Shown: positions 26,341 through 63,563, numbered from the stretch's first letter. The stretch is DNA of 64,000 bases from a virus (IMGVR_UViG_3300042558_004043); one strand, 5' to 3'. Numbers and translations: made by a program. The notes: generated from the sequence alone by a model not told the origin.

Positions 26341-27012
26341 ATGAAACACATACTTATAACCCTCACAATTATTTCTTTATTTTCTTGTAACAACGAACCA
26401 ACTAAAGTCGTTCCATGGTCCGAAAGTGGAATTCCTGAACTTGAAAGTCTTGGTCGAAAACTCGAAAAAATGCCTGACATAGACGACACTTTGTCTCAGC
26501 ATTATGTAAAAATTCTTAAAGAAAAAGAATTAGACGAAGTCCAACCTAAAGTTGAATCTGCGGTCCGAATTAAAGGATTGGGTAATTACAATCAAAAGGA
26601 TGTTAACAAAGTTGCGGAATATGTTAACAAGTTTTTTGGTTATCGATGTATAGTTGAGGAAGGAGTCCCAACGACAAGTAAGATGTATTACAATGGAAAT
26701 AACTTAGATGTTTCCCAATGTATATTTGAACTTAATCGTCACGGAGTTAAAACAATTTATGTGACCAATGAAAACGTTGTTAATAAAGGTCAACAAATTC
26801 GTGGGGGTACGTTCTTACGTTGTAATACTGTGATTGTGGAACATACTGATTACGATGAAACTACGGTTTTACACGAAGTTGGTCATACGTTAGGTCTTGT
26901 TCACTGTGATAACCCAAAATGTTTGATGGCCATTAATAATGACGCCGAGGTAACTATGGATTTTTGTGATAAATGTAAAAAAAGATTGAAACAAGATGAA
27001 AACATTCAATGA
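26341..27012 (+). CDS. lipoprotein zinc metalloprotease (archaemetzincin-like)
   Basis: lipobox LFSC; HEVGHTLGLVHC...CLM...FCDKC. Confidence 0.8.
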   Translation: MKHILITLTIISLFSCNNEPTKVVPWSESGIPELESLGRKLEKMPDIDDTLSQHYVKILKEKELDEVQPKVESAVRIKGLGNYNQKDVNKVAEYVNKFFGYRCIVEEGVPTTSKMYYNGNNLDVSQCIFELNRHGVKTIYVTNENVVNKGQQIRGGTFLRCNTVIVEHTDYDETTVLHEVGHTLGLVHCDNPKCLMAINNDAEVTMDFCDKCKKRLKQDENIQ

Positions 27013-27280
27013 TTTGGTATTTGAACCCCACCCAAATTTGAGAGGAGGAGTTCAAGCTTTAATGACCCTTAACAACGGATACGAAATTTCAGTAGTTGGT
27101 GGAGATGAATTCTTTTACGGAGATGGTATTAACACTTTTGAAGTTGCGGTGTTTGACAGAATGGGAGAAATGATAATGCTTCAAGAAACCGACCAAGTTT
27201 TAGGGTACCAAATCAAACATGAAATCACTGATTTAATTCAGAAATACGATAATGAACCAATTTTAAAAGTTAATTTATGA
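26996..27280 (+). CDS. conserved phage hypothetical protein
   Basis: MKTFNDLVF...NGYEISVV...FEVAV. Confidence 0.65.
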   Translation: MKTFNDLVFEPHPNLRGGVQALMTLNNGYEISVVGGDEFFYGDGINTFEVAVFDRMGEMIMLQETDQVLGYQIKHEITDLIQKYDNEPILKVNL

Positions 27281-27441
27281 GTAAAGAAGCTAAAGATTTT
27301 GCATATTGGATACCGACGGTATATGAACCATGTGGCCAACATGATTGGAAATATAGGTATCCAAAAAATTCAGATGAAATGACCAAGTGTTTCACTGTTG
27401 AGGAGGTTTACGACGACTATATACAAAAAAAGGGGAGTTAA
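27277..27441 (+). CDS. small hypothetical protein (54 aa, not in track)
   Basis: ATGA-coupled; MSKEAKDFAYW... Confidence 0.5.
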   Translation: MSKEAKDFAYWIPTVYEPCGQHDWKYRYPKNSDEMTKCFTVEEVYDDYIQKKGS

Positions 27442-27472
27442 CAACTCCCCTTAATTCCCAATATTTGAAATA

Positions 27473-27637
27473 TTATTTGTTGGATAAAATTGACCATACG
27501 GTCCCAACGAAAGTTACAGTCATACCAATTATGTCCATAATTTGACCTTCTGATGCTAAGCCCCTAGCAACTAAAATTCCCCCTAAAAAAGTAAGTCCGT
27601 GTCTAACTAAACCCAAAATTTGTTCTTTTTGTACCAT
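27473..27637 (-). CDS. putative small holin (54 aa, not in track)
   Basis: MVQKEQILGLVRHGLTFLGGILVARG...VGTVWSILSNK; two TM segments, resembles Pam3-gp28-type holins. Confidence 0.65.
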   Translation of the reverse strand: MVQKEQILGLVRHGLTFLGGILVARGLASEGQIMDIIGMTVTFVGTVWSILSNK

Positions 27638-27726
27638 TGTTTAAAAATTAAAATTTATTTACTATAAATATTTTGAAAGTCGGAAAAACACACTTACATT
27701 TGTAATCACAATTAAAACGATAAAAT

Positions 27727-28095
27727 ATGTCTAAAGAAAAAAAGAACTCTATTGATTCATTGTATGAACAAACTATGTTAATTGCAAAACAAGTAGAACA
27801 ATTAAAGAAAGAAGTTATGGGTGAACAAACCTATTCCTTCACGAAACAACAACTCAAGGAATTTTCAGACGCACTGTATGATAATTTTGTTCAATTACAA
27901 AACTCCTCAATTTCTGGAATTGAATTTTCAAGTGATTATGTTCAATTAGAACTTGAGGACAATGTAATCGTTGCTTCAATTGATTCCACTGGTATTTCTG
28001 ATGAAATTGAAAGTCTTGTTGAGCCTCCGAGCACTTATGAAATGGATAATATGATTAGTGAGATTTTGGAGAGTATGAAGATAGAACTCCAATGA
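27727..28095 (+). CDS. hypothetical protein
   Basis: TACATTTG promoter at 27695-27702. Confidence 0.6.
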   Translation: MSKEKKNSIDSLYEQTMLIAKQVEQLKKEVMGEQTYSFTKQQLKEFSDALYDNFVQLQNSSISGIEFSSDYVQLELEDNVIVASIDSTGISDEIESLVEPPSTYEMDNMISEILESMKIELQ

Positions 28096-28313
28096 AAAAA
28101 ATCAAATTAAAAAAACCTTATATCGATAAAACTGATGAGACAAGAAATCAGGTAATTAGAGATATGTTTAACACCAATAAAAAACCAATTACAAAAATGA
28201 GATACAATAACAATACACCTTTTGAAGAATTTATGTACCGTTTTGCGGTTGTCTTTGGAATCACTGTGATTACTTTAAATCTAATTATTTTGGTTTTAAA
28301 GTTGATTGGTTAA
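28092..28313 (+). CDS. small protein with C-terminal TM helix
   Basis: ORF track; hydrophobic C-terminus. Confidence 0.55.
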   Translation: MKKIKLKKPYIDKTDETRNQVIRDMFNTNKKPITKMRYNNNTPFEEFMYRFAVVFGITVITLNLIILVLKLIG

Positions 28314-28349
28314 GGTTTTACCTGTATATTTGTAAAAGTTATTTGAAAT

Positions 28350-28639
28350 GCTGGGTTGATGGAATAGGTAGACATTCAGGACTTTAACTATTTGAGTGCG
28401 TCTTGAGAAATCAAGAATGTAGAACTCCGTAAATTCGGTGAACCCTCCGAAAGTGGGAACCCCGAGCCAAGCCTGAAAAGGAAGGTGTAGAGACTAGACA
28501 CGGAGCACCTAAATCGTAAGATATGGTGAAGGTATAGTCCAGACCACAAACAACTTTTAGTTGGTAGTGAAAACTATAGTGGTAAGAAAATCCTGTGGAC
28601 ATTGCGTCCGTGTGGGTTCGAGTCCCACACCCAGTACCA
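28350..28639 (+). tRNA. tRNA-Leu(UAA), intron-containing
   Basis: 5' exon 28350-28384 ends CAGGA-CTT; 3' exon 28587-28639 starts AAAA-TCCTG, long variable arm, T-arm, encoded CCA; acceptor GCTGGGT/ACCCAGT. Confidence 0.92.
28385..28586 (+). mobile_element. group I self-splicing intron (202 nt, no ORF)
   Basis: core AAATTCGGTGAA / AACCCCGAGCCAAG / AAGGTGTAGAGACTA / GGTATAGTCC; P1 ACUU:GAGU with U.G at splice site; terminal G28586. Confidence 0.92.
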
Positions 28640-28641
28640 AA

Positions 28642-28715
28642 GCACCCTTAGCTCATTAGGTTAGAGCAAGTGACTCATAATCACTGGGTGGCAGGTTCGA
28701 ATCCTGCAGGGTGCA
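28642..28715 (+). tRNA. tRNA(CAU), probably Ile2 (lysidine type), otherwise elongator Met
   Basis: GCACCCT/AGGGTGC acceptor, AGTGA-CT-CAT-AA-TCACT; resembles bacterial Ile2 tRNAs. Confidence 0.85.
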
Positions 28716-28727
28716 CTAGTTAAACAT

Positions 28728-28872
28728 AGTCAAGTGGCGGAATATTGAGAGTCTCCGGAAACATACTCTCAAGGTAGACGTACTAGATGGTTATAGCACT
28801 AGGGGTAAAAAAGCACAATGCGTGTGGTCACTATAATGGCAGCCCGTGGAGGTTCGAATCCTTCCTTGACTA
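28728..28872 (+). ncRNA. oversized tRNA-like RNA (T1, 145 nt)
   Basis: AGTCAAG/CTTGACT acceptor, GGAGG-TTCGAAT-CCTTC T-arm, hairpin inserted in D-loop, 12-nt anticodon loop, branched variable arm. Confidence 0.7.
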
Positions 28873-28975
28873 CAATTTTTTTAATTTACTATGAATGGGT
28901 TAGAATTATTATTAATTGGTATTTGGGTCGGAATGGGACTTGGGTACTTAATAACAAAAGATTTTTATAAGAAAA

Positions 28976-29620
28976 ATGGCACAAGGCGTTCATAAAATAA
29001 CTGAAGAATTTGAAAAAAAATTATCAGACTATACCGGAGCTCCGTTTGTAGTTACAGTAGATAATCAAAGTAATGCACTTTTTTTATCTCTGATGTATGA
29101 AAATGTGAAGGGAATGGATATTGAAATTCCTTGTAGGACATATCCATCGGTCCCTTGTGAAATAATTCACGCAGGAGGTAAAGTTAAATTCTTTAATGTG
29201 GAAGGAGATACGATTAAAGGGGCATATCAGTTATATCCAACTAAAGTTTGGGATAGTGCGTTAAGATTTACTCATAACATGTACATTCCAAACACACATA
29301 TGTGTGTATCTTTCACAGGACCATACAAACATTTAAAATTGGGCAAAGGTGGTGCTATTTTAACTGATGATGAAAATGCCTACAAGTGGTTTAAAAAGGC
29401 TAGATTTAGCGGTCGTGATGAATGTAGTTATCATGATGATGATTTTGATAAAAATCCGGTAATCGGATGGAATTTCTACATGATGCCTGAAATTGCGGCA
29501 AGAGGATTACTTTTAATTAGTCAGTTCTATGATTCGAAGGGAATTCCTATTATCAACGAAGATTTAGAATTACCTTATCCTGATTTATCTAAATTTAAAA
29601 TCTACACTAAAATTAATTAA
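28976..29620 (+). CDS. DegT/DnrJ/EryC1/StrS-family PLP-dependent aminotransferase-like protein (short)
   Basis: EFEKKLSDYTG, NQSNALFL, SFTGPYKHLKLGKGGAILTDD, GWNFYM. Confidence 0.8.
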   Translation: MAQGVHKITEEFEKKLSDYTGAPFVVTVDNQSNALFLSLMYENVKGMDIEIPCRTYPSVPCEIIHAGGKVKFFNVEGDTIKGAYQLYPTKVWDSALRFTHNMYIPNTHMCVSFTGPYKHLKLGKGGAILTDDENAYKWFKKARFSGRDECSYHDDDFDKNPVIGWNFYMMPEIAARGLLLISQFYDSKGIPIINEDLELPYPDLSKFKIYTKIN

Positions 29621-29622
29621 TT

Positions 29623-61238: not shown

Positions 61239-63563
61239 ATGAAAAAAATCGTTTTATTACTTACACTTTGTCTATCCTTTATTCTCGGATACGGTCAATA
61301 TGACTTATCCAAGAATATTGAAAGACAAATTATTGTGGTTCCAAAAAAAGGAATGGAACTACAAGCAAAAAATCACTTTAACCAAGGTGATACAAAAGTT
61401 GTTGTCGAGTTCGACCAACTTGGGTGGTATGTTGTCCTGATTCCGAATGGTGCGAGCCAAGACGAATTTATTAATCGAAACAAAAGTTTAAGTTTCGTAC
61501 AAAATCTTTACAAGGATGAGACAAGAGAAATGAAGTTGGACTATCTTCCAAACGACGCTGAATTTGCATCTTGTTGGCATCTACGTCAGTCTACTGATAA
61601 AGATATTGATGCCGATGAAGCATGGGACTTAGTTCCGGCAAACAATCCATTTGTTAGTGTTGCAATGTTCGACGGAGGATTGGATTTAACTATTCCTGAC
61701 CTCGTTGGGAATACAAACAGTCCATTCAATGCGGTTAATAGCACAACAAATATTCCTTATGTAAACGCTGAGGACAAACACGGAACAACTTGTTCGGGAA
61801 CTATTGCGGCCGTTACAAATAATGGTATTGGTGTTAGTAGTGTTGGTAACAACAAAGTAAAGGTAATGCCGGTTAACATTATGTCCGAAGTTTTTGCTGG
61901 AGGTAGTTTCCGAACATCGGACGTAATTCAGATTAATGGTGTAAATGCTGCGATGGCTAATCCAACTTGTGTTGCAATTGCAATGTCTTATGGTGGGTCA
62001 TCATACTCTGCGGCTCTTGACGCTTCGTTTCAGGCGGCAAGAACAACCGCAAGAGGTGGAAAAGGTATGGTGGTAGTAGCATCATCAGGAAATGGAGCTT
62101 CAGGTACTGCAAATCAATATCCGGCTAATTACCCAGCTGTATGGGGAATTGGGGCAACATCACAATCAGATGTTAGAGCAAGTTTCTCTAACTTCGGTCA
62201 AATTTGTGACATATCGGCACCTGGTGTTGGTATTAGAACTACTGATAGATTGGGAGCTGCGGGTTATAACGCAGGTGACTACACTTCTATAAACGGAACC
62301 TCATTCTCTTGTCCTATTACGGCAGCCGCTGCGGCTTTTGTATTCTACAAGAATTGGGAACTTACTGACGACCAAGTACTACAGATACTAGCTCAATCGG
62401 CTGAAAAAGTAGGTGGATATGTTTACTCTAACAATCCTACTTGGCCGTTATCAACAAGAAGTAATGAACTTGGTTATGGAAGAATTAATTTAAAAGATGC
62501 GATTAATCTAACACCAAACCCAGGTGGTGTAATTCCTCCTCCACCTCCTCCGACGCTCATTCATAACTTTGTAATTAATACTTTAACTGTAAGTCCTGCG
62601 GCGGTTACAGTAGGTTCTAATATTACAATTACTGCAAATGTCGCGACACAAAATCCTACATATCCATCGGTGAATGTAATGACTCAACACAGATTATCAA
62701 CCAACACAACTTGGGGTGACTCTGATGATATTGTTATAGGAACAACAAGTGGCAATCTTGGTGGTGGAGTTGCAACTGACGTTGAGACAATAACTTATAA
62801 TGTTGGTAACATTACAGGACTCAGATATATTATAAGTAGAGTTAATTATATGGGTACTATATCTGAAACTAATACAACTGATAATACAAGACAAACAAGT
62901 TTCAATGTTACTCAACCTGTTGTATCAGGTGGTGACTTATCAGTTGCACTGACTATACCGTCAACACCAACTGCAACAATTTCACCAACACAAACTCAAA
63001 TTACTTTCCAATGGAAGGTTACAAATACAGGTACAGTTCCAATTACATCATTTACTTGGGACAGAATGTGGGTGAATATTCCTGAAGCACCTAGAACTTG
63101 GCCTATGCCTGCAAATGGAGGTTTTCCAGGTTCTTGGCAAGGTCCATTACTTCCAGGTCAATTCATTTATTTACCAGGTGGAGGATTACCTACAAACCGA
63201 TTAGGCGTGTCTTATTTATCGGCATCTGTATGTTTTAGTACAAACAGTTGTGCTCTACCACTCGGTTCAACAAACACTTTCAGAGTAAGAATTCTTACTG
63301 TAAATGGTGGTGCAGGTGATGAAAACCTTGCAAATAACCAAGTTGAATGTACGGTAACAAGACTTGCAACTGCGGTTAACAATGACGAGGTTATTGATGC
63401 ACCTGAAGTTAAATTTGTTGAAGTTAGACAGTTTAGTAATTTATATGAAAAACCAATTAGGTACGGTAGTATTGATGAAGCAATACTTGAAAAGGGACTT
63501 AATGTAATTCACATTCATTACTCTGATGGAACGGTAGAAATTAAAAAGATTTCTGTAAACTAA
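61239..63563 (+). CDS. secreted S8 subtilisin-like protease with CARDB-like Ig domains
   Basis: signal peptide; triad FDGG / HGTTCSG / GTSFSCP; ETNTTDN and DENLANN CARDB-like ends. Confidence 0.92.
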   Translation: MKKIVLLLTLCLSFILGYGQYDLSKNIERQIIVVPKKGMELQAKNHFNQGDTKVVVEFDQLGWYVVLIPNGASQDEFINRNKSLSFVQNLYKDETREMKLDYLPNDAEFASCWHLRQSTDKDIDADEAWDLVPANNPFVSVAMFDGGLDLTIPDLVGNTNSPFNAVNSTTNIPYVNAEDKHGTTCSGTIAAVTNNGIGVSSVGNNKVKVMPVNIMSEVFAGGSFRTSDVIQINGVNAAMANPTCVAIAMSYGGSSYSAALDASFQAARTTARGGKGMVVVASSGNGASGTANQYPANYPAVWGIGATSQSDVRASFSNFGQICDISAPGVGIRTTDRLGAAGYNAGDYTSINGTSFSCPITAAAAAFVFYKNWELTDDQVLQILAQSAEKVGGYVYSNNPTWPLSTRSNELGYGRINLKDAINLTPNPGGVIPPPPPPTLIHNFVINTLTVSPAAVTVGSNITITANVATQNPTYPSVNVMTQHRLSTNTTWGDSDDIVIGTTSGNLGGGVATDVETITYNVGNITGLRYIISRVNYMGTISETNTTDNTRQTSFNVTQPVVSGGDLSVALTIPSTPTATISPTQTQITFQWKVTNTGTVPITSFTWDRMWVNIPEAPRTWPMPANGGFPGSWQGPLLPGQFIYLPGGGLPTNRLGVSYLSASVCFSTNSCALPLGSTNTFRVRILTVNGGAGDENLANNQVECTVTRLATAVNNDEVIDAPEVKFVEVRQFSNLYEKPIRYGSIDEAILEKGLNVIHIHYSDGTVEIKKISVN

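Follow-up and report, generated by a model that had tools for sequence, protein, structure and literature searches.

Phage tRNA genes are usually attributed to codon usage or to the replacement of tRNAs that are cleaved by host defences. Non-decoding tRNA look-alikes have been known in phage tRNA clusters since the T4 species 1 and 2 RNAs, for which the T4 record gives no function. The tRNA-like domain of tmRNA, which comprises an acceptor stem and a T arm, does not decode either, and it receives its amino acid independently of an anticodon. A D stem is missing from tmRNA, which contains pseudoknots and a tag reading frame and owes its alanine specificity to G3.U70. Y RNAs are also tRNA mimics, with look-alikes of the D and T arms; they are found in phages too, and some of them are cut by RNase P and bear CCA (PMC4201824).

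The locus analyzed here encodes a tRNA-Leu-shaped RNA with a conserved cloverleaf-like fold and strong covariation. No prior description of its family, or of a kiss between an anticodon arm and a variable arm, was found in full-text literature searches.

Layout of the RNA gene and its tRNA cluster

The window, which is the whole stretch of DNA that was analyzed, comprises 64 kb of an 81.7-kb IMG/VR virus record with an estimated completeness of 28%. The phage most closely related to it is complete at 321 kb and has terminal repeats, and the sequencing runs containing window DNA were lake and freshwater metagenomes. A LamG-type protein encoded at 31240-32268 carries a type IX secretion C-terminal sorting domain, which suggests a Bacteroidota host and suggests that this protein is phage cargo for the host secretion system. 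The carriers are freshwater jumbo phages, and they probably infect Bacteroidota.

The RNA gene, referred to as the element, is located in a cluster with the order promoter-like site, tRNA-Leu(UAA), tRNA-Met, element and T-run. The cluster and the parts of the element are as follows.

28302-28330, promoter-like site upstream of the Leu-Met cluster
28351-28640 (+), tRNA-Leu(UAA) with a group I-like intron of ~200 nt in the anticodon loop
28642-28716 (+), tRNA-Met(CAT), called by ARAGORN and Rfam; the element starts 11 nt downstream
28728-28872 (+), tRNA-Leu-shaped RNA gene as a whole, 145 nt including discriminator A73
28728-28734 with 28865-28871 (+), acceptor stem AGTCAAG/CTTGACT, 7/7 paired, discriminator A at 28872
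28737-28781 (+), Leu-type D arm TGGCGGAAT...GGTAGACGT, stem 28737-28739 with 28779-28781
28745-28772 (+), D-loop expansion hairpin TTGAGAGT/ACTCTCAA, 8-bp stem with a 12-nt loop at 28753-28764
28783-28802 (+), anticodon-like arm with 4-bp stem CTAG/CTAG (28783-28786 with 28799-28802)
28788-28789 with 28797-28798 (+), inner 2-bp helix TG/CA of the anticodon-like arm
28790-28796 (+), anticodon-like loop GTTATAG
28803-28845 (+), branched variable arm of ~43 nt, a three-way junction on the stem GGGT/GCCC (28803-28806 with 28842-28845)
28807-28812 (+), A6 linker of the variable arm, with five invariant columns in alignment A2
28813-28825 (+), variable-arm hairpin 1 (GCAC/GTGT), variable in sequence
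28827-28840 (+), variable-arm hairpin 2 (GTCA/TGGC), conserved
28831-28836 (+), hairpin-2 loop CTATAA, the exact complement of TTATAG at 28791-28796
28848-28864 (+), T arm GGAGG-TTCGAAT-CCTTC with a 5-bp stem and the loop TTCGAAT

A 145-nt tRNA-like RNA with extras in three arms had originally been predicted, and every part of it was found where the prediction had placed it. The acceptor and T arms are those of a canonical tRNA, with a 7-bp stem, a discriminator, a 5-bp T stem and a 7-nt TTCRANY loop; pair 3-70 is U-A. In the D arm, A14 A15 could be assigned to 28741-28742 and G18 G19 to 28773-28774. The 12 nt enclosed by the CTAG/CTAG stem consist of a bulged A at 28787, the inner TG/CA helix and the loop GTTATAG, and a free 7-nt loop on a 5-bp anticodon stem with Y32, U33 and R37 is not found in the element. 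CCA is absent from the gene, and the genome reads CAA after A73. Across related phage variants, conservation starts at 28722 and ends at 28873, and a covariance model made from the homologues matches the full element from end to end with 134.7 bits.

ARAGORN made no call on the element, neither in the window nor in 77 family loci. The Rfam tRNA model gave 16.4 bits on the 3' part, compared with a gathering score of 29, and this sub-threshold tRNA was the only Rfam match covering the element, even at E up to 10. The whole class is missed by annotation pipelines. A normal tRNA-Ile(UAU) is also encoded in the window and was called by ARAGORN.

At the matching place in a relative (L082:6610-6695), the same tRNA-Leu is intron-less. 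The Rfam model Intron_gpI gave no match on the intron of the window's tRNA-Leu, even at E up to 10. The depth of RNA-library contigs peaks on the core of this intron, probably from related introns of other organisms. Parts of the element itself were present in contigs of four riverine metatranscriptome runs, at a depth of 2.5-6 and continuing into templated flanks; these contigs could stem from DNA or from a precursor and establish neither transcription nor mature ends nor CCA addition.

Distribution and covariation of the family

Three sequence patterns matched 33, 45 and 49 viral stretches, and homologues were also retrieved from metagenomes with one pattern. Part of one loop was prescribed by two of the four patterns used; with the pattern that left both loops free, 48 of the 49 viral matches and 57 of the 80 listed metagenome loci were family members, scoring 96-140 bits (model R1). 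The 80 distinct homologues derive from lake phage contigs and metagenomes. No cellular member was identified among 24 chance matches of this last pattern in the representatives of 185,579 bacterial and archaeal species, and the top cellular matches of the model were ordinary tRNA-Leu(UAA) with 57-59 bits. Blastn against 50,697 GenBank phage records gave T-arm-sized matches only, and therefore, at the sensitivity of blastn, no isolate carries the element. One model match elsewhere in the window (62411-62547, 14 bits) appears to be coding and looks like noise.

A single copy each was found in the complete 321-kb genome, in a complete 163-kb genome and in a 175-kb fragment. In the 77 loci, the element lies nearly always within a tRNA cluster on the same strand, often separated by 3-11 nt from a tRNA-Thr, Met, Arg or Cys gene. 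In the relative L082 it differs at 3 of the 145 bases, and the flanks are 83-89% identical. The commonest family neighbor is a DUF932 (PF06067) gene, which is located upstream on the same strand at a median distance of 250 nt in 41 of the 77 loci (for example L211:9269-10075 (-)) and is absent from the window and its closest relative. This association is read as synteny and not as a functional link.

A DegT/DnrJ-like gene at 28976-29620 encodes 214 amino acids that cover only the N-terminal part of the fold. It has 532 relatives on viral contigs with 73-86% identity, which do not share their neighbors; no synteny and no copy of the element were observed in 80 DegT-like loci, and the 23 loci that were scanned for tRNAs had none. 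The DegT-like gene and the PglD-like and PhyH genes behind it look like a widely exchanged sugar-modification cassette.

In the 80 distinct homologues, 98.0% of the pair cells hold standard pairs, compared with 32-51% when the partners were slid by 1-3 columns, and two-sided changes could be identified in 25 of the 39 pairs. The observed values of pairing and covariation were reached by none of 500 shuffles. The alignment used (A4) was fitted to the covariance model, and a MAFFT alignment gave the same covariation picture. The minimum-free-energy fold of the single sequence agrees with the one drawn originally, but its stability is no better than that of shuffled sequences (z = -0.31); it is thus the comparative evidence that beats chance, and not single-sequence thermodynamics.

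Apart from the D stem and hairpin 2, every helix of the cloverleaf shows double changes. All seven pairs of the acceptor stem show two-sided changes across the family, with 99.3% of the cells paired, and the discriminator A73 is present in 71 of 77 members. In the anticodon-like arm all six pairs change on both sides (99.6% of cells paired); within its inner 2-bp helix, U-A is replaced by A-U or C-G and G-C by A-U. The variable stem and hairpin 1 covary, and the stem of hairpin 2 alternates between U.G, U-A and C-G. The T arm, with 99.8% of its cells paired and two-sided changes at three pairs, contains the invariant sequence GGTTC.A.TCC. The original prediction was to be refuted if homologues lacked compensatory changes in the inserted stems; such changes are present in the D-insert stem described below, in both helices of the anticodon-like arm, and in the variable arm at its stem and at hairpin 1.

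The D-loop hairpin and the complementary loops

The D-loop hairpin is an optional, lineage-specific expansion with a covarying stem. It is present in ~44 of 77 members, and the remaining ~33, for example L205:2433-2549 (-), have a plain tRNA-Leu D loop in the D arm GGCGGAATTGGTAGACG, which matches the D arm of E. coli tRNA-Leu. The D loop of these insert-free members is of ordinary length (about 7-11 nt) and contains G18G19; in the window copy G18G19 are present as well, but a 28-nt hairpin is located between N16 and G18. About a dozen different hairpins of 15-30 nt occur among the lineages, in all carriers at the same position between A14-A15-N16 and G18-G19. For the insert type of the window, 14 distinct sequences were available, in which the stem GAGAG/CTCTC changes to GGGGG/CCCCC, with compensation from A-U to G-C at two pairs, and the loop core TCCGGAA is fixed. 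In the window this conserved core is located at 28754-28760, and its TCCGGA part is self-complementary.

The combination of the Leu-type D arm with an insert is more widespread than the family. A D-arm pattern consisting of TGGCGGAAT, 15-45 nt and GGTAGACG gave at least 117 matches in viral contigs (L087-L203). Among the 117 matches listed, a 7-bp acceptor stem together with a T arm was recognized in 48, of which 41 are outside the family and combine a D-loop hairpin with an unrelated middle. Also among the matches listed, D-insert types recur together with different middle modules (for example the GTACAAAGAG..ATGTGC type), which suggests modular reshuffling.

The self-complementary UCCGGA loop could, as a speculation, join two molecules at their elbows. 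An apical palindrome of at least 6 nt is present in 7 of 13 insert types of the family, compared with a mean of 2.1 in loop shuffles; several of the palindromic types look homologous, however, and reduce to a GUAC tetraloop with its closing pair. No enrichment of palindromes could be observed in the wider D-insert class (2 of 24, control 2.0). Dimerization via palindromic insert loops was for these reasons dropped as a general feature.

Every member of the family has both the enlarged anticodon arm and the branched variable arm. The loops of the two arms, UUAUAG (28791-28796) and CUAUAA (28831-28836), are complementary over six positions, and 478 of the 480 cells in the family (99.6%) are paired. 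One of the six pairs is switched on both sides, being G-C in 71 sequences and A-U in 9, and the A-U clade contains a G-C sister; four further pairs vary to G.U only. The sole break is a terminal U.U in a CTATAT variant of the loop, which was found at three loci. The support for the loop-loop pairing thus amounts to one, possibly two, compensatory events and about five changes that preserve pairing by wobble. In two members (L161 and L247) the anticodon-like loop has 6 nt and is made solely of the pairing bases. G occupies both position 32 and position 38, the latter of which covaries with the variable arm.

Since the apical loops are complementary to each other and covary, the anticodon and variable arms most likely form one joint domain. 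The two loops would form a kissing helix, most simply within one molecule; the kiss could equally be intermolecular, as covariation does not discriminate between the two. The near-invariant A6 linker may dock on the loop-loop helix. A kissing helix of this kind would bury the UAU triplet and thereby exclude the RNA from the ribosome, and with the anticodon loop paired to its own variable arm, reading of codons is probably impossible.

In the original prediction the RNA was viewed as a tRNA scaffold that displays additional modules. A tRNA-shaped scaffold under selection and a D-loop hairpin acting as an add-on module are retained from this proposal. The notion of three independent display modules is abandoned, as the anticodon and variable arms are universal in the family and their loops are mutually complementary and covary.

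Interpretation and comparison with known RNAs

[quoted passage not shown] In the family, A15, U48, G18G19, GGCGGAA, GGTAGACG and the T loop are conserved, and A73 is kept in the 71 members mentioned above. The set required by LeuRS is thus retained and only the dispensable arms are remodeled, so that the element is probably a LeuRS substrate and its leucylation is plausible. The leucine identity elements overlap with the universal tRNA core and may be mere inheritance, and the 28-nt hairpin next to G18G19 might block LeuRS.

The element is probably a non-decoding tRNA mimic that is derived from a class II tRNA-Leu, most like tRNA-Leu(UAA), and is excluded from the ribosome. It would be transcribed together with the neighboring tRNAs, excised by RNase P and a 3' nuclease, and provided with CCA by the host enzyme. 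In the four records searched, among them the two complete carrier genomes, no gene for a CCA-adding enzyme, an L/F-transferase or a FemAB-type transferase was found, and TROVE/Ro60 and DUF2828 were absent from both complete carriers. As CCA is not encoded in the gene and these four records lack a CCA-adding enzyme, host enzymes would be needed. The loop-loop lock would hide the UAU triplet and so keep the RNA off the ribosome. As a guess, the RNA might act as a decoy that binds or diverts a factor recognizing tRNAs, for example LeuRS, a processing enzyme or a defence nuclease that targets tRNAs; an alternative guess is a role as leucine carrier in a non-ribosomal reaction. The fully specified version, in which a leucine-chargeable, cis-locked and ribosome-proof carrier or decoy acts against a host tRNA-directed system the variable arm presents a codon-like loop with AUA to the UAU anticodon loop, and the D-loop hairpin serves as a second interface, is offered tentatively and is as a whole rather improbable.

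Several other explanations have to be weighed against a non-decoding mimic. The element might be a working decoder of leucine or isoleucine identity, which reads AUA with the anticodon UAU on a 6-bp stem and in which the variable-arm loop is an accessory or a regulated lock. The 7-nt inner loop GUUAUAG, in which 78 of 80 members have U33 and A37, the canonical form of all remaining arms, and the 6-bp anticodon stem of tRNA-Sec, which works in translation, speak for it. A G at positions 32 and 38 is, however, most uncommon among decoding tRNAs, and covariation links position 38 to the variable-arm loop; the loop has 6 nt in two members, the family conserves the bulged A as well as an exact 6-nt complement in cis, a normal tRNA-Ile(UAU) is already encoded by the phage, and both ARAGORN and the Rfam tRNA model reject the element, so a decoder is very unlikely. 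There is only a slight chance that the D-loop hairpin, and perhaps other extras, are short introns whose removal yields a normal class II tRNA. Removal of 28744-28771 would give the D-loop spacing of the insert-free members, and the neighboring tRNA-Leu has a true group I intron, but the 28-nt hairpin is without a ribozyme core, no ribozyme family of Rfam matched within 27000-30000, and bacteria are not known to possess the bulge-helix-bulge splicing endonuclease. The covarying stem and the conserved loop of the insert point to a role in the mature RNA. Moreover, as the extras in the anticodon and variable arms occur in every member, splicing of the D insert would not yield a normal tRNA. A joint that skips the insert was not seen in RNA-library contigs, which are a weak test and cannot exclude one. 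Decay of a tRNA-Leu pseudogene with hairpins arising by chance, to which the rejection by tRNA finders and a fold energy no better than shuffles could be ascribed, has a negligible probability: it is refuted by the near identity of the element in L082 within more divergent flanks and by the 80 distinct homologues with 98% pairing and 25 covarying pairs.

Two further readings keep the RNA intact and assign it a different partner or a role in cis. As a Y-RNA-like partner of a host or phage Ro60 (Rsr/TROVE), it would tether or gate the ring protein in the manner of YrlA. In favor of it are the tRNA mimicry of bacterial Y RNAs and their occurrence in phages (PMC4201824), as well as a TROVE gene in one carrier phage of about 98 kb (G002). 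However, TROVE and DUF2828 are both missing from the complete carriers (G001 and G003), TROVE is likewise missing from the record of the window (G000), TROVE was found within about 3 kb in 0 of 77 family loci, and conversely a family member lay within 3 kb in 0 of 50 phage Ro60 loci. The topology of the element is unpermuted, with its 5' and 3' ends forming the acceptor stem, and the Rfam YrlA model gave no match; this partnership is thus considered improbable. The gene in the 98-kb phage (L375:829-2448) encodes a 540-amino-acid TROVE/Ro60-like protein with 51 relatives on viral contigs, and in many of the relatives' loci tRNA-type genes are located ~2 kb downstream. A cis-acting element that ends the tRNA operon, by RNase P/Z cuts or by a stop of transcription and without a function in trans, would fit its last position in the Leu-Met cluster of the window, followed by a T-run, and tRNA-like punctuation is a known principle. 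In other phages, however, the element opens a cluster or lies inside one, for instance 5 nt ahead of tRNA-Arg or tRNA-Met, and punctuation needs the acceptor and T arms only, not a covarying anticodon and variable domain with complementary loops; a role purely in cis is therefore quite improbable.

As a probable non-decoding mimic, the family represents a well-defined case with many members, which is single-copy and confined to phage-type contigs. Every leucine identity element is kept and the parts ignored by LeuRS are rebuilt as a self-pairing domain, which raises the question whether phages deliberately keep chargeable tRNAs off the ribosome. The family also demonstrates that a natural tRNA body tolerates large additions at D-loop position 16/17, in the anticodon arm and in the variable arm, which is relevant to engineered scaffolds.

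Further structured RNAs were observed in the window. A GOLLD RNA of full length (38789-39182 (+), 321 bits) directly precedes a tRNA-Met at 39200-39273 (+), and 550 nt beyond this tRNA-Met a tmRNA is encoded on the opposite strand (39821-40198 (-)). A link between GOLLD and the element was considered and discarded, as GOLLD is present in G000 and the 321-kb relative G001 and absent from the complete carrier G003. A second tRNA-Leu-scaffold RNA (T3) at 34249-34357 has an acceptor stem of the same type (AGTCAGG/CCTGACT) and an unrelated middle, scores 36.9 bits with the family model, and was noted together with the segments 34078-34151 and 34570-34644. At the matching place (about L082:10897-11005), the relative has a different tRNA-like element. 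The surrounding segment of ~1 kb (33587-34643, corresponding to L082:10280-11260) is conserved and without credible ORFs, with hairpin-rich segments interleaved with tRNA and tRNA-like genes, and looks like an operon of structured RNAs.

Among the known RNAs, class II tRNA-Leu (RF00005) shares with the element the 7-bp acceptor stem with A73, the 3-bp D stem GGCGGAA..GGTAGACG, A15-U48, the T arm and a long variable arm. The element differs from it in the bulged 4+2-bp anticodon arm, the G32/G38 loop that is complementary to the variable-arm loop, the three-way junction of the variable arm (~43 nt) and the optional D-loop hairpin of 15-30 nt. The T4 species 1 and 2 RNAs (rnaC and rnaD) are similar in length (about 120-140 nt) and in their position inside a phage tRNA cluster adjoining tRNA genes. 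In rnaC (L350:1909-2047 (-)) a canonical T arm, CCGGG-TTCGAAT-CCCGG, is flanked by a terminal stem, which makes it a tRNA-shaped RNA itself and gives it a tRNA-type T arm and terminal stem in common with the element. There is no homology to rnaC and rnaD beyond the T arm and acceptor, and the family model matches rnaC only partially, with 19.3 bits; rnaC has neither the Leu-type D arm nor the pair of complementary loops, and its middle is unrelated.

YrlA and other Y RNAs (RF02553) are permuted, end in the Ro60-binding stem, have an acceptor analogue that is capped by a loop and are encoded beside rsr, whereas the element ends in its acceptor stem and is not linked to a Ro60 gene. The tag frame, the pseudoknots and the G3.U70 of tmRNA (RF00023) are lacking in the element, where neither ARAGORN nor Rfam called a tmRNA. 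The other phage tRNA-Leu-scaffold RNAs, such as T3 and the 41 elements mentioned above, have the Leu-type upper half in common with the element; the acceptor stem AGTCAGG/CCTGACT and a D-loop hairpin are frequent among them. Their middles, in contrast, are unrelated, and the UUAUAG/CUAUAA pair and the A6 linker are exclusive to the family of the element.
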